A DNA stretch of 15,844 bases from Candidatus Hodarchaeota archaeon. Its GTDB lineage: Archaea; Asgardarchaeota; Heimdallarchaeia; Hodarchaeales; Hodarchaeaceae. The notes under the pieces were generated by a model that was not told the origin of the DNA, ran no database searches, and worked only from the letters and a program-made list of their open reading frames with translations. Both the position numbers and the translations under genes were made by a program. Below, piece after piece: positions 508 to 14,873 of the stretch; within the stretch, counting starts at the first letter, position 1; the number at the start of each line of letters is the position of its first letter. The stretch covers positions 1-15,844 of the forward strand of contig JAHQWW010000085.1 in assembly GCA_029856365.1 (NCBI GenBank), written 5' to 3'.

Positions 508-1959
508 ATGCCTGCGCCCACAAAACATCATCTTATAATTGGAGACTGTACAAAAACTAAGAAAATTCTCGATTTCCCGGCTATTGATCTTTTATTGACC
601 TCACCACCATATTTTAATGCACCTTTCGATTATAGTGACCTTTTTCATAACTATGAAACCTTTTTAGGTATGGTAGATAAGTTTGGAAAACTTTACTTTA
701 AAACTTTGAAACCTGGGGGAATCGTTGGTCTCAATATTGATGATATGCTCATCGAAGGCGTCAAATATCCAATTATATCGGATATCCTAAAGATATTTTC
801 TAATATAGGTTATCTATTGAAAGGAAAAATTATATGGAGAAAACCTGAGGGATATATTCGCATTAGCAGACGAAGTGGGGTTTTATTACAGAATCCATAC
901 CCAATGTATTATTATCCTGATAACCTTCTCGAAGTTATCTTAATCTTTCAGAAACCATCACATATGAATCTTACAAGCAATAAAATAATGTATTTTGAAG
1001 ATATATGGGAGATGACTAATGTTCTACCTTTGAAAGGACGGCTCGAAACTAATATTGCTGCGTTTCCAGAAGAACTGCCTAGGAGACTCATCAATATTTT
1101 TACAACAAAGGGATCATGGGTTTGTGACCCATTTCTTGGATCAGGAACCACAATGAAGGTTGCACGGGAGTTAAGGCGACATTCAATAGGTGTTGAAATC
1201 CTAGAACAACTATTACCTATAATCAAGATGAAAATTGGTTTTACTTCAGAGAATCTTACAAGCTACTTGGATTTAGATCAATTAATAATTAATAATCTCC
1301 AACCAGATGAAAAAGAAGACGAAATCAACCACCAAGTTTCAAGTCATTCCTTGCTTCCCCTTGCATTAAAGAAACACAAATCTCTCAATAACGAATATAA
1401 ATATCATTTATTACTCTTAGATTGTAGAAATATTTCAAAGAATGCGTTGAACGAGTCATTTTTTAAACTAATTAACAAATTATTTCCTGGTCGGATATTA
1501 GCTGTCATGTTTGAATCTTTAAATAATTCAAGCAATATATTAGCTCTTAATCAAGTAACTGATTCTATTATGCGCCATGGATTACGATTACGCGATAGAA
1601 TAACAGTCCAACATCAACCAGACTGGCATTGGGAAGTTATTACTAATTACAAAACTAGAGTAGTTTTTCATCATTGTTTCTATGAAGTTTTTTTGTTCCA
1701 AAAAGGAAAATTCAATTATAAAGGTAAATCTATAAGGGAAAAACAGGACTGTCTTATTAATAAACGTCAATTTCAGAAAGAAAAATGGTACCTAACGTTA
1801 TGGGATTTCAGAAATCAACCAAGAAATGAATGTGATTCAATTGTCACAAGTAGATTATTAGAGTTATTTCTTTTCAATGATGAAATTATTTGCACAAATA
1901 TCAAACAAATATCTTGTTCACAAAGACGATTTTCCACTGAGTATTTCACCTTAAGGTAA
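508..1959 (+). CDS. Beta-class N4-cytosine/N6-adenine DNA methyltransferase with a fused C-terminal degenerate methyltransferase-like domain
   Basis: Catalytic motif IV TSPPY (nt 598-612) precedes SAM-binding motif I DPFLGSGTT (nt 1126-1152), the beta-class order. Other typical elements: LKPGG, IIWRKP, AAFPEELPRRLI, RHSIGVEI. Residues from about 298 to 483 repeat the fold without the catalytic motifs. SD-like GAGGA at 497-501. Confidence 0.9.
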   Translation: MPAPTKHHLIIGDCTKTKKILDFPAIDLLLTSPPYFNAPFDYSDLFHNYETFLGMVDKFGKLYFKTLKPGGIVGLNIDDMLIEGVKYPIISDILKIFSNIGYLLKGKIIWRKPEGYIRISRRSGVLLQNPYPMYYYPDNLLEVILIFQKPSHMNLTSNKIMYFEDIWEMTNVLPLKGRLETNIAAFPEELPRRLINIFTTKGSWVCDPFLGSGTTMKVARELRRHSIGVEILEQLLPIIKMKIGFTSENLTSYLDLDQLIINNLQPDEKEDEINHQVSSHSLLPLALKKHKSLNNEYKYHLLLLDCRNISKNALNESFFKLINKLFPGRILAVMFESLNNSSNILALNQVTDSIMRHGLRLRDRITVQHQPDWHWEVITNYKTRVVFHHCFYEVFLFQKGKFNYKGKSIREKQDCLINKRQFQKEKWYLTLWDFRNQPRNECDSIVTSRLLELFLFNDEIICTNIKQISCSQRRFSTEYFTLR

Positions 1960-1991: not shown

Positions 1992-3821
1992 TTGCTAAAA
2001 ACATGGAACCCACAATTCGTAAAGCTTGACCTGACGGAAGAAAAGGTTTCTCCACAGAAACCAATTGAAAAAAGAGTTATTGAAAATTTTCTGGGTGGCC
2101 GTGGAATAACTGTTTATCTTGGTTATCATACAATTCCGACTGATGCTAGTCCACGTGGGCCTGATAATGCGGTAATCTTTGGGACAGGAGTTCTTACTGG
2201 AACATTATTCCCATCAACAGGCATGGTGGTTGCAACTTTCAAATCTCCCCAAACAAACACACTATTTACTTCAGTAGCTACTGGACAGTTTGGTGCAAGT
2301 TTGAAACAAGTTGGTTTGGACTTTTTCCAAATATCTGGCTGCGCAAAAACTCCCAAATATGTTGTAATAGATGAATTTTCTGATGTAACACTTGAGGATG
2401 CAGACCAAATTTGGCAAAAGACTATATCAGAGACAGATGCTTGGTTACGTACAAAACATGGGAATGATGCTTGTATTGCTTCAATAGGCCTTTCAGCTGT
2501 TAATCAGGTAACTTTTGCTGGATTAGCGGTTGATCGTGTACACTTTTTTCGTCGTGGAGGATTAGGAGCTGTCTTAGCCTCAAAAAACATCAAAGCGATC
2601 GTAATCACAGAATCCCCTCACATAAAGGAATTAAAGGGATTAACATCTGAATTTATTGATGATTTTAACAGATTTCTTGAGCAAAAGCCTTGGTTCAAAA
2701 TGCTTCATAACCGAGGAACCTTTTCGACAATATTTCCTACTATTGAAAACACTGTTCTTCCAGCAAAAAATTGTACTCGTTTATTGCAGCTAGCCCCTGA
2801 AAAAATATCTTCTTTTCAAGGCTATGGAGAGCCTTTTCAATGTTGGCAATGCCCGATGCAATGCCAGCGTAATTCTTATCAAGCTTTCGTTGCATTGGGA
2901 CCGAATTTGAAAATAGTGGATATAGAACGGATACAAAAAGCCATTGAATCCTGTGATAACGAAGCACTCGATCCGCTCTCTACAGGAGCCGCTCTTGCTT
3001 CACTATTCAACATCCAAGAAGATCGGAGAAAACTGTTAGATATTGATCTTGGATTTCAATGGAATAACCCTGAAATCTATTCTCTGATTGATAAAATCAT
3101 TAGAAGAGAGGAGTTAGGAGATCAGCTATCTCGTGGCGAAATTTATCTCTATCAACAGACTAGTGAGCCTTCTCCTATGATTAAAAATCAGATGGGCGGA
3201 ATGTATTATTATCCTAATATCCTAGGATTGAGTCTCGCGACGAGTATTTCCCCATATGGAGCTAATAATTTCCGCTCAGATTACATGATCTTTCCTGAAC
3301 TTCTAGGTTATCCTTTCAAGCTCAATCCAAGTTCTAAAAGAGGAAAAGTCAGAACCATTATTTTATTGGAAAATTATGTAGCAGTTCTAGATTCTCTTGT
3401 AATCTGTTCTAGATACCTTCCTATTTTCTTACAACCACATAGGTGGTTCACTTGGTTATCATCAAATCTACGCAACCGTCTCTTCAATCTTCTTCCTTAT
3501 CCACTTATTGGAAGTTTTGGATTAGAACTGAATACTCTATTATCCATTCTTAAAATCACTTTTGACGAAAAATTTACTTTTAAAAAACTATTAGCAATAG
3601 GAAATCGTACCACACTTCTCGAACGAATCTTCAACACACGGGCAGGAATGACCCGTGATGATGATCACTTTGCTAAATTTCTTAAAAAAAGGCCAGATTT
3701 TTTTAAGAAGCATGATGAACTACTTTCAGAATATTATTTTCGAAAAGGTATCACTCCAAAAGGATTAGTAAACAAGAAAACTCTGCAGAAGACAGGGTTA
3801 CTTGGATTAATTACTATTTAA
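1992..3821 (+). CDS. Aldehyde:ferredoxin oxidoreductase (tungstopterin AOR/WOR) family protein, divergent
   Basis: Family motifs FLGGRG, KSPQT, FGASLKQVGLD, RGGLGAVLASKNIKAI, the Fe-S ligands CWQCPMQC plus DSLVIC, then CDNEALDPLSTG, LERIFNTRAG and EYYFRKG. TTG start with an SD site. Length is typical for the family. Confidence 0.88.
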   Translation: MLKTWNPQFVKLDLTEEKVSPQKPIEKRVIENFLGGRGITVYLGYHTIPTDASPRGPDNAVIFGTGVLTGTLFPSTGMVVATFKSPQTNTLFTSVATGQFGASLKQVGLDFFQISGCAKTPKYVVIDEFSDVTLEDADQIWQKTISETDAWLRTKHGNDACIASIGLSAVNQVTFAGLAVDRVHFFRRGGLGAVLASKNIKAIVITESPHIKELKGLTSEFIDDFNRFLEQKPWFKMLHNRGTFSTIFPTIENTVLPAKNCTRLLQLAPEKISSFQGYGEPFQCWQCPMQCQRNSYQAFVALGPNLKIVDIERIQKAIESCDNEALDPLSTGAALASLFNIQEDRRKLLDIDLGFQWNNPEIYSLIDKIIRREELGDQLSRGEIYLYQQTSEPSPMIKNQMGGMYYYPNILGLSLATSISPYGANNFRSDYMIFPELLGYPFKLNPSSKRGKVRTIILLENYVAVLDSLVICSRYLPIFLQPHRWFTWLSSNLRNRLFNLLPYPLIGSFGLELNTLLSILKITFDEKFTFKKLLAIGNRTTLLERIFNTRAGMTRDDDHFAKFLKKRPDFFKKHDELLSEYYFRKGITPKGLVNKKTLQKTGLLGLITI

Positions 3822-3841: not shown

Positions 3842-6800
3842 TTACTTTCCTTTGTCCACTAACTGTAGAGATGACCCTTTTAACATACTCATAATCCCTG
3901 AGAGATAAGAGACAAATTTTTCGTCTGTACTGGCGAAGCCTAGGGTATCGGGCAATACTAGGACAGCACTCTCATCTTTAATAGCTAAAAGCCCTGATAG
4001 TTTCGTAGCTTTTAGTTTATAGAAATTTATATTGACTGGTTTACCAACTTCTGTAGCCCATTTTTTACCTTTTTTAGAGAAATCAAAGTTTGTAATAACA
4101 AAGATACGCTTTTCTGAAGGTATAGTTTTAAGGTCAGCTACAGATAAGAAGGTAGGATTCGATGTAACGATTGTTACTTGTCTGGATGCGGTTTTAATCA
4201 TGTCTTGTACGAACTCATTCTTTGCTTCATCAGTAGCTAATTTAATTAAACGAAGAGAATCTATCGGTTTAACACGAGAAAACTCAGTAGCAAACGCTTG
4301 TAAGATTTCTATTTGTTGCTTGTTTGTGTTTATTAAATTGTTTAAAAAATCTTGAGATCTATTAAGTACCTCTGAAAATTGATTATCGAGTTCTTCTATT
4401 ACGTTTTGAGTAATTTGATTTGTCTTTCCTGTGAGCTCAAGCGAAGTTTTATTAAGATCAGTATTGTAAGAGTCAAGATTTGCATTAAGACTCTTTCTAA
4501 AATCATTGCTTGTATTTTCAACTGTCTCTGATAGTTCTTCCTTGAATTTCGTAAGCTGATCTAGTAATTTTGCATTCTGTTCAACGATAATAGCCGACAA
4601 TTTAGAAAATAAACTTTTAATTTGTTCTCGTGATTTCTCAACCTCTTTAATGGTCATCTGAATACTATCAGTCAAGTCTACGGATAATGTTTCGATATCC
4701 TCAGCCGTTGATTGTGAAAAATTAAGTAATATTTCATTTAATTCAGTTTTCATTTCAGAAAAGTCGAGATTTTGACTTTCTTCTTTCAGATATTTGTGCA
4801 ATTGATTTGAAAGCGCTGTTTGTGAGCTGGAAATTAAATCTCCTAAATCTTCCAAATAAGAAGATAGATCTTCTGCTGTTTGGGTGTGAGCTGCTTCATA
4901 TGATGTTACTAATTCGGGGATCAATTGTTGGTCAAATTGCTCTATGTGCGCCTTCAAACTTTCAGAAATCACAGATTTCAAACGTTTGTTTGCTAGTTTA
5001 ATCTTCTTCTGGATCTCACGTAATCCAAGGATATCATCTTTAGAGGTTTCAAGATCTAAGATTGTACTGAAAGATGTTATTGTTTCTTCAATATTTGTCT
5101 GAACTATTACTTCTAAATTCTCGAGATTTGCCTCAATAGCTTTATCTATGGCATTTGATACATCCTGTAACTTTGTTCTGCCTTTTTCCATTTCCTTATT
5201 CCAGTATTCTATGAGACTTGCTAAGTTTTCCTCTGTTTTCTCCTCTAACTCATGATTTGAACGTGAACGTTCCTGAATTAAATCATCAAAAACCTGAGAA
5301 AATTCCTGAGACTGTTCGGGGATTTTTATTTGGAATTCTTGATCTTGATGCACAATAAAATCTTTAATTCCTGTACTTAATCTTTCTACAGTCTCAGATA
5401 ATTCACTTTTTAAAGTTCCTATCTCTTCTTGAACTACTTTGGTAGAATTCTCAATCTCAGACGTTACAAAACCCGTCGTAACATTAATCTGGTTTTCTAG
5501 ATCTGTTAGGGAGTCTGTATAATAGAGATCGATGTCTTCTGTGATCCTATTAAGACTATTAGTTGCACTCTGTAAAGAATCAGTTACTAATGTTGTAAAT
5601 TTATCTCCGCTATCTTGAACCTGTCGCAATAAGTTATTAACCTCCCCAATAGTAGACTCTGAATAACCGCTATAATAGGCTTCAAGTTCCACCATAGCGT
5701 CTTTAACTTTTTTATTCTGATTTATAACATCTGATTCTATCTGATTTATAAAAGATAAGATATCACTTGTTCCTCTTTCTTGATATTTTTCAATATTCGA
5801 TTTTTGTAGATCAATTACTTCTGTGGTTGTCTGATGACTCTCATTGATTAAATCAGCGACAACTTTCTTACTTTCTTCAATAGTTTTGTTCAGGTCAACT
5901 GTAAATTTTGAAAGTTGTTCCACAGTTTGACCTGAAAATGAATCTATTATTGTATTCAGGTTGATTTGTTGATTTTCACTATTTTTTTCTATTTGATTGA
6001 GCTGATTCTCTAATTCTAATGTGAATTCAGTTTTTATTTGACTAAAACCCTCTTTAATGACTTCAAGTGTTCTATCTAGATGGCTTTGTAAAGCTGTATC
6101 TAATTGAGTAATATATTCAGCAGAATCTTTTTGATTTTGAGTAAAAATATGATCGATATCATTTTTCACTTGAGTGACCGAAACTTGAAGTGCTGATTCC
6201 ACATTGGTGGTAATATTCTCTGAAGAAAGCCTTTCAATGATATCCCCATAACCTCCTTCAATTGAGTTTATAACCTGTTGAAAGTTCCGGGCTATAGCTT
6301 CAAGCTCAGTGTTCATAACTTTAGCTCTTTGTTCAAATCTAAGCTCTACTTTATCCAAATATGCTTCTTGAAGATTAGAAACGGTACTATTTAATTGTGT
6401 TGTAGAGCTAATGACTTTTTGAATTTCATTTTTGCTTTCTTCCAAAGTCTCCTTAAATGAGGTCTCAATTCTCTTTTGTGTACTTGATAAAGAGCCATAG
6501 ATATCTTCAACAGGTTTTAACGATGATTCACTCATCCCGTCCTGGATTTCCATAACAGAATTGTTTAGGGAGTTTTTTAACAAAGTTTTAAAATTATTAG
6601 ATTGCATAGGAACCGATATCAGTATGTTTCCAAGTAATTGTACAATTGATTGAGATAATCGTTGAAAATGACTGACATCCATGTCTTTTCTTGCAATTGA
6701 TTTTTCAATCGTAGTATGAAATGAATGGATAAGTCCTTCGAATTCTTTACTCTGTTGGGTTAACCTTGTTTTTGCAGAACGCCGAATTTCTTCCATGATA

Positions 6801-8023
6801 TCAGTAGTAGCTTTTTGTACACGACGATAACTTGTTTCCATTGTGTTTAAATCGGCAGACAAGTGAGCTTGAAATTGTCGTTTAAATGTCTCTGAAACGG
6901 TCGTTAATCTTTTTTCTGAAGACAACTTGGTTATTTCTGTATTTAAAACATCCAAAGGTGTTCTTTGTTCTTGGATTAATTCAGAAGCATTCTCAACAAA
7001 CTCTTTGAATTCGGTTTTTATTTGATTTGAACTATTTTTAATAGCATTATTTGTTTGTTGTTTCACTTCTTCAACTGCTTGGTTGATCTCTATATCTATT
7101 TCGTTGGCTAGGTTTTTCACCACAGCCTGTAAAACTTTAATTACCTCTTCTCCTAAAGTTACTTGTACCCTTTGACGAACTTCTTTTAGAAACTCTTTCT
7201 CCTGTTTCCAAGATTCCTGCAGACCTGTGTTAAGATTTGTCTTAAAATCTTCTGCAAAAGATTCTGTATTAGCAAAAAATTCTTGAATCTGATTTGTAGA
7301 CTCCACTTCTATCGCTGTGACAACATCTGACAATTGAGATTGAATAGATGTTATTTTCTTTACAGCTACCTTGATAATTTCGGATAATTCTTGTTCATAT
7401 TTGGCAATAGATCCCTTAAGAGTTCGTGTCCCTGTTTCAGGGATAGTTTGGAAACCACCAAGAGCTTTCAGCCATTCTTTTTCAAAATTTGATGATTCAG
7501 AAGACAAAGAGGTCTGGAATTCCGTAAGTAAATCAGAAGACCCTGTAGAAAACAACGATAACATTGACTCTGCAAGCTCATCTGTCCGCTTTGATCTTTG
7601 TTGTTCTATTTCATCGAATTTTTCTTTCAAGGATGTTTGTAGCATATTACTTGAAGCCTTAGATTCCTCGAACTGTGTTTCAAGGGATTCACGAAGTTTT
7701 TCTAAGTTTCCATCAATTGATTTTCGATATTCTTGAAATATTTCTGCCTGATCCTTTTTATTAGTTTCAATCTCTTTGGAACTATTGTTAAACATAGTTA
7801 TGACGTTTTCTAGTGGAAGAGATTGAAAATATATTCCTGTTTCTTCATCTAAACGAATAAATCCTTTAGTAAGTAACTTTGAAAGGGCTTGTTCTGCTTT
7901 TTCAACATTTAAGCCTGTTGCTAGTAATAATTCCTGTTTCGTTTGGCTACCAAGCCTCACCAATGATAAAAATACTTCATTCTCGGTTTTGGATAATGAA
8001 TATCCATTTTCAGATCCTGACAT
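3842..8023 (-). CDS. Giant helical/coiled-coil protein with an N-terminal TrmB-like winged HTH and a C-terminal TrmB effector/PLD-like domain
   Basis: The N-terminus LSKTENEVFLSLVRLGSQTKQELLLATGLNVEKAEQALSKLLTKGFI...YFQSLPLE fits the TrmB wHTH pattern. About 1180 aa of E/Q/K/S/T/L/I-rich amphipathic helix follow, with no Cys and few Pro. The last ~140 aa (DMIKTASRQVTIVT...LLAIKDESAVLV...GFASTDEKFVSYL) fit the TrmB C-terminal PLD-like fold. No Walker A motif. Confidence 0.8.
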   Translation of the reverse strand: MSGSENGYSLSKTENEVFLSLVRLGSQTKQELLLATGLNVEKAEQALSKLLTKGFIRLDEETGIYFQSLPLENVITMFNNSSKEIETNKKDQAEIFQEYRKSIDGNLEKLRESLETQFEESKASSNMLQTSLKEKFDEIEQQRSKRTDELAESMLSLFSTGSSDLLTEFQTSLSSESSNFEKEWLKALGGFQTIPETGTRTLKGSIAKYEQELSEIIKVAVKKITSIQSQLSDVVTAIEVESTNQIQEFFANTESFAEDFKTNLNTGLQESWKQEKEFLKEVRQRVQVTLGEEVIKVLQAVVKNLANEIDIEINQAVEEVKQQTNNAIKNSSNQIKTEFKEFVENASELIQEQRTPLDVLNTEITKLSSEKRLTTVSETFKRQFQAHLSADLNTMETSYRRVQKATTDIMEEIRRSAKTRLTQQSKEFEGLIHSFHTTIEKSIARKDMDVSHFQRLSQSIVQLLGNILISVPMQSNNFKTLLKNSLNNSVMEIQDGMSESSLKPVEDIYGSLSSTQKRIETSFKETLEESKNEIQKVISSTTQLNSTVSNLQEAYLDKVELRFEQRAKVMNTELEAIARNFQQVINSIEGGYGDIIERLSSENITTNVESALQVSVTQVKNDIDHIFTQNQKDSAEYITQLDTALQSHLDRTLEVIKEGFSQIKTEFTLELENQLNQIEKNSENQQINLNTIIDSFSGQTVEQLSKFTVDLNKTIEESKKVVADLINESHQTTTEVIDLQKSNIEKYQERGTSDILSFINQIESDVINQNKKVKDAMVELEAYYSGYSESTIGEVNNLLRQVQDSGDKFTTLVTDSLQSATNSLNRITEDIDLYYTDSLTDLENQINVTTGFVTSEIENSTKVVQEEIGTLKSELSETVERLSTGIKDFIVHQDQEFQIKIPEQSQEFSQVFDDLIQERSRSNHELEEKTEENLASLIEYWNKEMEKGRTKLQDVSNAIDKAIEANLENLEVIVQTNIEETITSFSTILDLETSKDDILGLREIQKKIKLANKRLKSVISESLKAHIEQFDQQLIPELVTSYEAAHTQTAEDLSSYLEDLGDLISSSQTALSNQLHKYLKEESQNLDFSEMKTELNEILLNFSQSTAEDIETLSVDLTDSIQMTIKEVEKSREQIKSLFSKLSAIIVEQNAKLLDQLTKFKEELSETVENTSNDFRKSLNANLDSYNTDLNKTSLELTGKTNQITQNVIEELDNQFSEVLNRSQDFLNNLINTNKQQIEILQAFATEFSRVKPIDSLRLIKLATDEAKNEFVQDMIKTASRQVTIVTSNPTFLSVADLKTIPSEKRIFVITNFDFSKKGKKWATEVGKPVNINFYKLKATKLSGLLAIKDESAVLVLPDTLGFASTDEKFVSYLSGIMSMLKGSSLQLVDKGK

Positions 8024-10123: not shown

Positions 10124-11179
10124 TTAACTCAAATAACTAGGCATCCAATCAAGCAGATAGTCTCTTCCGATTTCTCTAAATTCACGTTTTATTTGGTCAA
10201 TTTTAGTGAAGAATCCTTCTCTCATGGACTCGAGTTGAAGATTTTCTAGAATTTTATCTAACTTAGGTTGGATGTTTTTTATACCCGCAATAAGGTTAGA
10301 ATAATTATCCAACTTCTTTTCAGTTAATAATTCATTATTATAAAGCTGAATCTGAGTGGATAATCCACCTGAAAGGATTTTGAGCCCTTCTTCTTTGTTA
10401 AAACTATTTGGATCATTACATGAAGCTAATAATTGATCAAAACATTCTTTATTGGGTAAAAATACATTTCTTGCTAAAACACCACGAAGGTACATTTGTG
10501 TGGTTCTTTTCGCAAGAATTATAGAGAAAGGAATCGAAGTCATAAACTCTGTCATTCGCATTTTCTCACTATCCAAGATGGAACCTGATATGTCTTGAGC
10601 TTTCTCATATAGATCTAAGGGGAGGACTATTCCTGTTATTTCACGATAATCAGTTACTATAGAGCCTGGTCCTAACTGGAATTTCACCCAGTATATCCCT
10701 AGTCCTGTTATAAGAAAGAACGGTTCACCTGTTGTTTCTTCAAATCCCGATAGTGCAATATTAGGTAAAAAGACAATTGTATCTTGAAAGATTTTCTGCA
10801 CTGGTTGGTTTAAATAAAATCCATTGAAATGAGATCCAAGCAGTTTCCGCCATGAAGGAATGAACAGGAGTTGATCTAAAACCCCAAAAACTGATTTTCG
10901 TAGTTCAATAATAGTTTTATCAATTTCTTTAATACGTTGATCTATTTTATCAAATATAGATTGTCTGTCATAGACCCCGAGACGATAGGGATAGTCATGG
11001 TCTTCTTGAAAACGTTTGAATTCGCGAATTGAGATACCAGTAATCTCCTCTAGATCAGCATAGGATAATTTCCGCTCATAATATGCTTTGAGTCCCTCAA
11101 GAATTTTTTTCTCACCTTCAAATTGGGAAATATTCTCTGTAATCTCTTTTTCGCGTAGAGACATTTGGATTCTTTCCAA
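10124..11179 (-). CDS. Hypothetical protein with a UPF0175-like HTH near the N-terminus and an unassigned alpha/beta domain (true start may be the ATG at 11164)
   Basis: Open frame of 351 aa with no long competing ORF. LKAYYERKLSYADLEEITGISIREFKRFQEDHDYPY resembles the UPF0175 pattern (Y...kiS...aaelaGis..eF). I do not recognise the remainder. Confidence 0.7.
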   Translation of the reverse strand: MERIQMSLREKEITENISQFEGEKKILEGLKAYYERKLSYADLEEITGISIREFKRFQEDHDYPYRLGVYDRQSIFDKIDQRIKEIDKTIIELRKSVFGVLDQLLFIPSWRKLLGSHFNGFYLNQPVQKIFQDTIVFLPNIALSGFEETTGEPFFLITGLGIYWVKFQLGPGSIVTDYREITGIVLPLDLYEKAQDISGSILDSEKMRMTEFMTSIPFSIILAKRTTQMYLRGVLARNVFLPNKECFDQLLASCNDPNSFNKEEGLKILSGGLSTQIQLYNNELLTEKKLDNYSNLIAGIKNIQPKLDKILENLQLESMREGFFTKIDQIKREFREIGRDYLLDWMPSYLS

Positions 11180-12437: not shown

Positions 12438-14873
12438 TTATTCTCCCTTAAAAGGAGTAAGGTTCAATTCAATTTTCTTCCAAAATTGTGTTACTTCACG
12501 CTCTAGATCGCTGCATATCAATTCTCTTGGGCTTTCTTGATAATAGTAGGGGGGAAAATAGCTTGCATAGCGAAGAGAAGCAAAGCGACGTCCAATAAAA
12601 ATGATAATACCACGATCAGAAGAAGTACGAATTAATCTACCTGCAGCTTGAAAAGTCCGTGTCAATCCAGGGAACTGATAAGCATATGCAAACCCATTAC
12701 TAAACCTCTCCTCATAGTATTGTTTAAGTAGCTCTTGTTCAAAGGTTACTGTTGGTAAACTAGGCCCAATTACAATAACACCATCCAAAATACCTGGAAA
12801 ATCAATGCCTTCAGCAAAAATCCCAGCTGTGACAGCTAACGCTAATACATGAGGAGAAGTTTTTAGAGTATCGATAAAATCCTGACGATCAGATTCTTGC
12901 ATTGTAGGCGCTTGTTTTAAAACAATCAAGTCTTTACTAGGTGTTAGAAAACTAGCTACTTTTTCTGCAAATTTGAAAGAGGGGAAGAAGACAAAATATT
13001 TCCCTTGTTTTATCTCCAATACTTTTTGAATTAAATCAGCAATATCTTGGAAGTGATGCCGTCTTTGTTCATAGCGAGTATCAATATTCGGAAAAACTAA
13101 GATTTTACGATTGTGAGGTGAAAAAGGTGATGGAAAACGTTTATATACAGTTTTATCAATGGGAAGTCCGAGTAAATCACGATAAAACGGGAATGGTGTG
13201 ATAGTGGCAGATATTGCAACTGATGACTTGAAAAAAGTCAAGCGTTGCTGAAGAAATGAGGAAGCGTCTTTGCATAATATTTTTATTTTCCCTTCGTGAA
13301 CGTAGTACAAAATCGAGAACTCTTCAGCATTCTGTGCAAGCGCTGCGGTTTCCACGAAGTCACGGAGATGATAATAAAATCTGAGAATGGGATCATCAGG
13401 CCAGTAAAGTTCTCTTTCCACCAAAAATCGCACATATCGGGTTACTGCTTCTTCAAACTGAGTCATAATCTTCTGAAATGAATTAAGATGGATATTTTTC
13501 AGAAGATGAGTAGAGATTTCAGTACCTTGTTTAGCACGAAGATTTCGAAAGATCCTCTCTAATTTTGGAGGGAGAAACTCAGGTAAGGGAATCCCCTTGA
13601 TCTTCTTTTTGAGTTGCTGCATCGATCGTTTAAAGACGAAGACTTCTCCCTGAGTCAAAGCGTGAGAGTAATAAGATAAACTCCTAGACACTAAATTGTG
13701 AGCTTCATCTATTATCAAATAAAACAAGGATTTTTTCTGATGAGGATCCCCAAAAAAACGTTGTAACGATACTCGAGGATGGAATACATAATTATAATCC
13801 CCAATAATAACATCTGCCTCTAAAGAAATATCTAAAGATAATTCAAAGGGACAAAAAGCTTCTGTAGTTAAAGCTTCTCTTTCAATAGATTCTGGATCTA
13901 TTACTCCTCGCTGTTGGACAAATTTTTCAAGAATTTCGTCAGGATAATGCTGTAGATAGTTTTTTAAAAAAGGACAATAATCTTCATGGCAAAAATAAAT
14001 TGCATTCTGACACATCTTTTCTTTTGCCTTTAATGTCAAAGCTAGGAAATCTACTCCTTGTTTGTAAAATAAATCAAGAGTTCTTTCCACTATATGTCGC
14101 TGAGTAGCTTTTGCAGTTAAAAAGAAGATCTTTGAATCCTCAAGGATAGCTTTAGGAATTAGCGGATAGAGGGAGACGACTGTTTTCCCCAAACCACTAG
14201 GAGCTTCCATTATAAGACATAATTTTTTATCCACAATTCCCCTAATCTTCTGGACTATTTCTTTTTGATATTTTCTATAATGAAAAGGAAAATGTAAGCG
14301 AGATAATGAGTTGATCTTCTTTTCAAGGCGAATCTGTTTAACCTGTTCTTGTTGAAGAAGTTTTGTAATTTTCTCGATTACAAATTCAGACATATCCTGA
14401 TATGGAATAGGGACAACATGTTGTTTATTATCGAAACGGTTAACCAAAATTAATTGCAATGATAATGAAGGCAGCCCAGTTTCAATTTGGCTTAACATCC
14501 ATGCATAACATTGAAGTTGTAGCCTGAATGGTTTGATTCGTGGATCATCAGGGGAAGCAGAAAACTGCTTTAAAAAAATTGACTTTATTTCTTCAATTTG
14601 AATAGACTCAGATGTACGAGCAACTAGATCTATCCTCCCGCGAATGATAACCCGCCAGTCTTGAACTGAGAACTGATATTTGACAAAATATTCAGCCTCA
14701 TAATTAATATTTTCCCTTTGTTTTTGATTCTGTATCTCTTGATGAATTTCCTTGCCTACTTCTGCATTTTTAAAAGAAATTTGAGCTCTAGTAAACTTAG
14801 GAATCCCAAGAAACGAAAGATCTCTTACACTAAGTTTAAGTTCTTTCTTTTCACGATTAAACCGAATAGTCAA
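12438..14873 (-). CDS. XPD/Rad3/DinG family Fe-S ATP-dependent DNA helicase with an N-terminal PD-(D/E)XK (RecB/Cas4-like) nuclease domain
   Basis: Nuclease motifs SVRDL, GKEIHQEIQ, GRIDLV, IEEIKS and QLQCYA. Helicase motifs: Q motif YRKYQ, Walker A APSGLGKT, four Fe-S cysteines (KEKMC..FC..YCP...FCPFE), DEAH, SAT, FAEGIDF and QAAGRLIR. TTG start. Confidence 0.93.
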   Translation of the reverse strand: MTIRFNREKKELKLSVRDLSFLGIPKFTRAQISFKNAEVGKEIHQEIQNQKQRENINYEAEYFVKYQFSVQDWRVIIRGRIDLVARTSESIQIEEIKSIFLKQFSASPDDPRIKPFRLQLQCYAWMLSQIETGLPSLSLQLILVNRFDNKQHVVPIPYQDMSEFVIEKITKLLQQEQVKQIRLEKKINSLSRLHFPFHYRKYQKEIVQKIRGIVDKKLCLIMEAPSGLGKTVVSLYPLIPKAILEDSKIFFLTAKATQRHIVERTLDLFYKQGVDFLALTLKAKEKMCQNAIYFCHEDYCPFLKNYLQHYPDEILEKFVQQRGVIDPESIEREALTTEAFCPFELSLDISLEADVIIGDYNYVFHPRVSLQRFFGDPHQKKSLFYLIIDEAHNLVSRSLSYYSHALTQGEVFVFKRSMQQLKKKIKGIPLPEFLPPKLERIFRNLRAKQGTEISTHLLKNIHLNSFQKIMTQFEEAVTRYVRFLVERELYWPDDPILRFYYHLRDFVETAALAQNAEEFSILYYVHEGKIKILCKDASSFLQQRLTFFKSSVAISATITPFPFYRDLLGLPIDKTVYKRFPSPFSPHNRKILVFPNIDTRYEQRRHHFQDIADLIQKVLEIKQGKYFVFFPSFKFAEKVASFLTPSKDLIVLKQAPTMQESDRQDFIDTLKTSPHVLALAVTAGIFAEGIDFPGILDGVIVIGPSLPTVTFEQELLKQYYEERFSNGFAYAYQFPGLTRTFQAAGRLIRTSSDRGIIIFIGRRFASLRYASYFPPYYYQESPRELICSDLEREVTQFWKKIELNLTPFKGE

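Follow-up and report, generated by a model that had tools for sequence, protein, structure and literature searches.

Why should a DNA methyltransferase carry, within one polypeptide, a second copy of its own fold from which both the catalytic and the cofactor-binding motif have gone? The question is raised by a gene at positions 508-1959 (+) of the window (15,844 nucleotides of contig JAHQWW010000085.1, from a Candidatus Hodarchaeota archaeon), an intact, unbroken open reading frame for a two-domain beta-class amino-methyltransferase of 483 aa. About 33 homologues, full-length or nearly so, are 43-77% identical to the protein, and those that are named carry Hodarchaeales or related Asgard labels; a literature search, with most subscription journals outside its reach, found no published description of it. 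We propose that it is probably a solitary (orphan) beta-class DNA amino-methyltransferase whose single chain forms a pseudo-dimer and has one active site. The architecture itself, a live and a dead half joined in one chain, we regard as very likely, and the sequences and structural models make it quite likely that the protein is an active DNA methyltransferase that needs both halves.

A live methyltransferase domain joined to a dead one

The N-terminal half (508-1296 (+), aa 1-263) has a complete beta-class fold. PF01555 matches it at aa 26-240 (E 7e-38), its motifs run in the order IV - TRD - I that defines the beta class, and VIA superposes it on TTHA0409 of Thermus thermophilus HB8 over aa 6-268 (Z 22.4). 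Motif IV (601-633 (+)) comprises SPPY (aa 32-35), invariant in 31 N halves, and a following loop (aa 36-42) that is 0.99 identical to the consensus of the single-domain relatives described below as parents. Motif I, the SAM-binding FxGxG loop (1126-1146 (+), aa 207-213), is invariant in the N halves, as are all the catalytic and SAM residues. A variable linker follows (1297-1398 (+), aa 264-297), disordered at aa 268-276, where pLDDT is under 50. The first-pass annotation of this DNA, which had seen an active and a dead methyltransferase in a single chain, gave the linker about 50 aa; since aa 246-263 still belong to the fold of the N domain, its true length is about 30-35 aa.

The C-terminal half (1399-1956 (+), aa 298-483) had been read as a second beta-class copy from an alignment by eye, which is not beyond chance on its own because BLASTP finds no significant similarity between the halves (E 0.14); a second PF01555 match (aa 280-483) is faint (E 0.069). 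The reading is borne out by other comparisons. Against an HMM built from 83 single-domain relatives, aa 278-483 reach 45 bits (E 4e-16), with the top of 1000 shuffles at 7.4 bits, and hhalign gives the C part 99.7% (E 1e-25). Folded alone, this part reaches pLDDT 91; Foldseek places beta-class methyltransferases at the top (2zie, E 2.6e-9), the first structural matches of the model are TTHA0409, HpyAVI, BceJIV, RsrI and CcrM, and VIA aligns 174 residues with TTHA0409 (2zie; Z 14.4, rmsd 3.7). Each half has the beta-class fold, in the second case trimmed.

What the second copy lacks are the motifs for catalysis. SPPY and FxGxG are missing from the C domain in 34/34 aligned sequences, extending to the homologues what had been noted for this protein, and a two-headed methyltransferase whose second domain is also active was rejected on that count. 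At the position of motif IV stands DCRN (1420-1431 (+), aa 305-308), which column counts across the homologues give as D/N-C/F/L-R-N/K. The ungapped VIA range against 2zie (model position 3, aa 292, on residue 34) sets DCRN over SPPY and so backs the register of the by-eye alignment; a MAFFT register that puts aa 300-308 on the first strand, and not on motif IV, was rejected in favor of the structural one. The "gap" opposite SPPY in the segment-identity alignment is a MAFFT artefact, and the motif is missing either way. The eroded motif I (1882-1899 (+), aa 459-464) has no glycine loop or FxGxG, and its E459 and N464 are invariant.

In a comparison of 16 coding sequences the live domain has a pN/pS of 0.27, the dead domain reaches 0.39 and the linker region (aa 246-297) 0.72. 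Because synonymous sites are near saturation, more weight falls on the five pairs that are least saturated; these give a dN/dS of 0.12-0.19 for the live domain and about 0.17-0.20 for the dead one. On the two points that the first-pass annotation had proposed to check, the two-domain architecture recurs in the homologues and the dead copy is, on these sequences, under purifying selection and not decaying.

Complementary losses in the two halves

Beta-class enzymes need a dimer because each subunit's catalytic face acts together with its partner's TRD (PMC7544214), which gives the homodimer two composite sites. In the M.BceJIV-DNA structure, loop-45 and loop-6F of a monomer read the DNA bound by that monomer, and its two-helix TRD reads the DNA of the other (PMC11380664). 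M.BceJIV (Burkholderia cenocepacia; PDB 8URK, 9C3S/U) is likewise an orphan beta-class enzyme, with the two-helix TRD acting in trans and both loops in cis, and matches both of our halves structurally (Z 20.2 for the live, 11.2 for the dead). It is a homodimer with two live sites on two DNAs, making m6A at GTWWAC, whereas the fused enzyme is one chain with one putative composite site. TTHA0409 (PDB 2ZIE/2ZIF/2ZIG), the top structural match of both halves, is also of the SPPY type and a homodimer; unlike the fused enzyme it has a single domain, with both subunits intact, and it is ~30% identical to the live half.

The nearest relatives, our parents, are single-domain enzymes of ~285 aa that are 51-57% identical to the live half, and identity to their consensus differs sharply between the two copies. 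The equivalent of loop-45 (838-930 (+), aa 111-141) scores 0.87 in the live and 0.11 in the dead copy, that of loop-6F (1012-1068 (+), aa 169-187) 0.72 and 0.03, and motif I 0.89 and 0.13; for the TRD arm the order is reversed, with 0.02 in the live and 0.49 in the dead copy. The parents themselves score 0.87 for loop-45 and 0.78 for loop-6F, and are mutually 0.66 identical in the arm. The names of loops and arm would map onto this family by fold position, and the two loops, present in the live copy only, are predicted to be recognition loops by analogy with M.BceJIV.

In the dead copy the arm is an intact, basic, helical element of 32 aa (1705-1800 (+), aa 400-431; net charge of the segment +4), and in the live copy a remnant of 17 aa (955-1005 (+), aa 150-166; net charge -1), lengths that agree with those first noted. 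Because the arm of the parents also measures 32 aa, the dead copy has the ancestral length and the live copy was shortened, so the losses, when set against single-domain parents, do look complementary as had been suggested. The live copy has retained the catalytic motif, the SAM motif and both predicted recognition loops, with its arm cut from 32 to 17 aa; the dead copy has retained the ancestral arm and the interface core and lost the remainder. Read by analogy, the protein would keep all the parts of one composite site of an M.BceJIV-type dimer and none of the other. The earlier proposal that recognition and catalysis are divided between the halves is thereby sustained for the helical TRD arm, which comes from the dead copy, but not for loop-45 and loop-6F, which stay in the live one. 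Constraint follows the same partition: the arm of the dead copy, with conserved basic residues at K399, K401, K412 and K426, has a pN of 0.19, equal to that of the catalytic domain, and the arm remnant of the live copy (pN 0.54, pN/pS 0.85) drifts like the linker.

Predicted packing of the two halves

Modeled as one chain, the protein closes in cis (pTM 0.87). When the halves are predicted as two chains they score 0.85, against 0.21 for the best of three controls; the 0.85 mark is reached by 58/80 solved complexes and by 2/110 mismatched pairs, and since this complex is like homodimers already solved, the pass may show likeness rather than binding. The runs share at least 95% of contacts, with a partner pLDDT of 86. 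The packing predicted in these models is pseudo-symmetric, with the halves meeting at the normal two-fold interface, a dimer-like arrangement of the kind that the first-pass annotation had proposed to look for: among 145 aligned columns, 36 interface positions are shared by both halves, 16 and 13 are unshared and 80 belong to neither. Several interface residues of the live copy are altered relative to the parents.

The two sides of this interface differ. On one, the dead arm touches loop-45 of the live copy in the complex prediction, and is predicted to pack on its residues 129-141. On the other, the lowest-error contacts join aa 161-165 of the live arm remnant to aa 384-389 of a beta-hairpin (1618-1680 (+), aa 371-391; strands in the model) that takes the place of loop-45 in the dead copy. 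The remnant is predicted to be now a strand that pairs with the dead copy, and a new strand pairing would have formed where both partners had degenerated.

Such packing would also suit a dead domain that is only a folding scaffold, covering the hydrophobic dimer face without reading DNA and keeping its arm to prop up loop-45, and in CcrM the sequence-reading loops all lie in the catalytic subunit (PMC10406627). Yet the arm has retained its length, its net charge of +4 and its basic lysines, it is as constrained as the catalytic domain, and the equivalent element of M.BceJIV contacts bases in trans (PMC11380664), so that we judge a mere scaffold very unlikely. We give still less credence to a domain-swapped dimer or higher oligomer, in which the live half of one chain would work with the dead half of another, or to a non-catalytic GGCC binder. 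The linker is long and flexible enough for swapping, and the halves also pass as a complex when folded apart, by a measure that is blind to cis and trans, but the one-chain model closes in cis and the invariance of the catalytic and SAM residues speaks against such readings.

Our preferred reading, the single-chain pseudo-dimer, would work as follows. The live domain would supply SPPY, the SAM loop, loop-45 and loop-6F, its own arm being lost, and the dead domain the arm and the interface core. The two would close through the normal two-fold interface, with the dead arm resting against live loop-45 and the abandoned side gaining its new strand pairing; the live domain would then flip a cytosine and methylate its N4 with SAM, the dead arm meanwhile holding the major groove. 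The protein would thus be a natural test of the beta-class dimer rule, in which selection preserved what makes up one composite site and removed what makes up the other, and it offers a ready single-chain scaffold for structural work.

Parent family and likely target

The genomic context of the parents points to restriction-modification. In 11 fetched loci, single-domain relatives adjoin a gene of ~350 aa that matches the Type II restriction-endonuclease (REase) profile PDLC03572 (E 4e-100), and one single-domain locus also has a controller-like HTH gene. Among 14 control genomes this profile rings only in Sulfolobus acidocaldarius, where SuaI is the sole reported R-M system, with GG-m4C-C as its product (PMC5809426); besides S. 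acidocaldarius, a further profile, PDLC03353, rings in three more control genomes. M.SuaI and M.PhoI are both of the beta class (PMC3425538). PacBio methylomes exist for three complete soil Asgard genomes (10.1101/2024.03.22.586370): Atabeya-1 and Freyarchaeia, each with a single-domain family member (in Freyarchaeia adjoined by the REase), show GGCC m4C, and in Atabeya-2, where no family member was found (best E 3e-28 vs 6e-106), GGCC m4C is not listed. The presence pattern of CCGG m4C in these three genomes is the same as that of GGCC; CCGG is not a motif of S. acidocaldarius, and GGCC is the sole motif common to all lines.

These links are indirect, and by them the parents are most likely SuaI-like Type II R-M enzymes (GG-m4C-C), the fused enzyme having its place within the single-domain relatives that go with REases of the SuaI-like family. 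The putative parents of the M.SuaI/M.PhoI type have one domain and are often accompanied by a nuclease, whereas the fused enzyme is half dead, orphan and vertically inherited. No cognate nuclease lies adjacent to it, and PDLC03572 finds its REase in 0/24 genomes of the order, among them a carrier with a single contig of 4.9 Mb; the fused methylase is not a working Type II R-M system.

We are moderately confident that the fused enzyme methylates GGCC as m4C; the most likely target would be the inner C of this parental site in double-stranded DNA. The first-pass annotation had suggested an asymmetric, single-stranded or RNA target. This is not supported, because the parents, enzymes of Type II R-M systems that are most likely SuaI-like, adjoin their nucleases and track GGCC m4C, and because the specificity elements of one site are all kept. 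Specificity may all the same have moved, since the arm has drifted and interface residues of the live copy have changed. The same single-chain architecture might then act on a new substrate, be it a different or asymmetric DNA site, ssDNA or RNA, with the loss of symmetry having freed arm and interface. The enzyme is no longer tied to a nuclease, its arm is only 0.49 identical to the parents, with family-specific substitutions, activity on ssDNA or RNA is known from other beta-class enzymes (PMC7544214), and there is no GGCC word signature tied to the gene. Loop-45, however, is as parent-like as the parents themselves and loop-6F nearly so, the protein has no added nucleic-acid-binding domain and no MT-A70 match, and its neighbors are not RNA-related; no RNA holder is listed. 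We consider a new substrate unlikely, and the preferred reading concretely predicts a single chain with a single site that makes GG-m4C-C.

Word counts across the genomes gave three candidate signals, all rejected. CCGG is the most depleted 4-mer of this genome (0.34), yet it is depleted with the methylase gene (0.22-0.32) and without it (0.36-0.51). GGCC enrichment is no footprint either, at 1.02-1.77 in carriers and 1.04-1.41 in non-carriers, and GGCC depletion near the parents (0.37 with the REase; 0.61-0.62 in Atabeya-1 and Freyarchaeia) was discounted, gene-less Atabeya-2 being equal (0.65). As a feature of the order, no 4-mer is more depleted than CCGG in any Hodarchaeales genome sampled (this one and 10 relatives; 0.22-0.51), and GGCC is usually among the most enriched words, in both cases regardless of the gene; this genome has one C5-methylase, a candidate cause of the CCGG depletion through deamination.

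The parent family extends beyond cellular R-M loci. Members occur in the Sulfolobales viruses STSV1/2 and YNP1/2 (~50% identity; L113:1483-2376), where they plausibly protect against SuaI-like restriction, and in one case a member is fused to a ParB domain (L064:261-2012).

Origin and inheritance

In the phylogeny, which places the fused methylase among prokaryotic R-M enzymes, the live halves form a clade of their own (100/100) that falls within the single-domain family, and the dead halves form one long-branched clade. A constraint that holds live and dead halves together is not rejected and has the higher likelihood (p-AU 0.60). Of the duplication and fusion first proposed, the joining of two domains in one chain holds; tandem duplication is compatible with the tree and a plausible origin, to which the fusion of two family members is the alternative. 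One sequence sister to the N halves, P0040, looks like a mosaic by eye, has no contig on record and was left out of our conclusions.

In a survey of 399 genomes of the phylum, 12/22 genomes of the host's family have the dead domain and no others do, the weaker matches being intact single-domain relatives. A profile search of 1.84 billion representatives agrees with this picture, and with the queries used no live-dead fusion was found outside Hodarchaeales. The full-length homologues lie at one syntenic site, where the methylase gene is directly upstream of an aldehyde:ferredoxin oxidoreductase (AFOR)-family gene (1992-3821 (+)) inside a conserved gene block. This neighbor, a syntenic marker outside the mechanism, is downstream in every carrier examined and stays where the methylase is missing, as it is from its site in seven genomes that keep the block; in two of the seven, a HEAT-repeat gene and the AFOR gene adjoin directly. 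The tree of neighbor genes requires at least two changes, with two losses the simplest account; the methylase tree broadly tracks it, and the methylase gene has the GC of its surroundings. Being missing from its site in those seven genomes, the gene is dispensable in some lineages, and it behaves as an inherited orphan. It would derive from a mobile Type II R-M system that then lost its nuclease, and would have been fixed in the chromosome of an early family member, with vertical inheritance and at least two losses thereafter.

Two apparent exceptions were set aside. A stand-alone or re-fused dead domain in a relative (G015) is an artefact of an assembly gap of Ns, and two gene copies in another (G021) sit in separate neighbor blocks with different places in the host tree, so that this genome is probably a mixed bin. 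At the methylase locus, a promoter scan, not built for archaea, stayed at chance level, and no tRNA was found.

Several other genes of the window merit description. The AFOR-family gene starts 32 nt downstream of the methylase, with which it is possibly co-transcribed, and carries a CxxCxxxC motif; its usual EYE and DxxGLD motifs are, we presume from inspection by eye, altered. At 3842-8023 (-) lies a gene for a 1393-aa protein with a TrmB-like winged helix, ~1100 aa of apolipoprotein-like coiled coil and a small C-terminal domain, kept in the block of all relatives examined. A protein of ~346 aa with no Pfam match (10124-11179 (-)) is encoded by one of the best-conserved genes of the block (67-92% identity). 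An XPD/DinG-type helicase that carries a PD-(D/E)XK nuclease-like domain at its N-terminus (12438-14873 (-)) persists in methylase-less genomes and is therefore not the partner of the methylase.

Comparison with active and inactive pairs elsewhere

Division of labor between two beta-class subunits on one DNA is also known from EcoP15I Mod2 and CcrM (PMC7544214), whose subunits are identical with interchangeable roles, whereas the roles in the fused enzyme are fixed in its sequence. METTL3-METTL14 and MTA1-MTA9 follow a like logic, a live domain with a paralogue whose motif IV is eroded (EPPL and NALW; here DCRN), but they are encoded by two genes, have accessory subunits and DPPW motifs, and act on adenine. 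The MT-A70 profile PF05063 gives no match up to E 1, the motif here is SPPY and not DPPW, and the fold similarity of MT-A70 to the live half is distant (Z 13.4, vs 22.4 for TTHA0409). The likeness is convergent, not ancestral, and the first-pass annotation was right to offer METTL3/METTL14 as an analogy rather than an orthology. A close kinship of Hodarchaeales with eukaryotes has been proposed and is debated; it does not make the fused enzyme an ancestor of the eukaryotic writers. What the protein would show is a stepwise path from a symmetric homodimer to an active/inactive pair, the METTL3/METTL14 and MTA1/MTA9 design reached convergently in a prokaryote, though its product is likely an ordinary m4C mark and the enzyme is off the line to the eukaryotic writers.

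Other methylases of the genome

The genome has an unusually large repertoire of amino-methylases, in which about two dozen ORFs account for 37 PF01555 matches, and holds two additional conserved live/dead pairs from different subfamilies. One is a Mod-like methylase of 810 aa (L182:8101-10533; G000:C160:76100-78532 (+)) with a motif-less N copy and a live C copy (DPPF and a SAM loop); it occurs in 19/22 genomes of the family, and in all 14 of the 14 orthologues inspected the motifs are in the C copy only. The other consists of overlapping genes (L181:5359-7066; G000:C187), the first for a motif-less beta-class homologue of 308 aa with an N-terminal extension and the second for an intact DPPY enzyme of 271 aa. 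The dead gene is found in 12/22 genomes and is adjacent to its partner in all 10 loci that reach far enough; from these sequences, the pair is a candidate two-gene live/dead heterodimer.

With the enzyme studied here, the genome thus has three conserved live/dead cases: a live-dead fusion, a dead-live fusion and a two-gene pair. It is conceivable, if improbable, that Hodarchaeales have repeatedly and independently made nuclease-free live/dead pseudo-dimers from homodimeric R-M methylases, the broken symmetry having allowed at least the enzyme studied here to gain a new target or regulatory role. Were that so, the lineage would be a natural series for the rise of METTL3/METTL14-type writers, though not their ancestor. 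The genome also encodes a 569-aa tandem of two methyltransferase domains (L183; G000:C96:51590-53299 (-)) that are 27% identical to each other (E 4e-25); both have a SAM loop, and in both motif IV is non-canonical.
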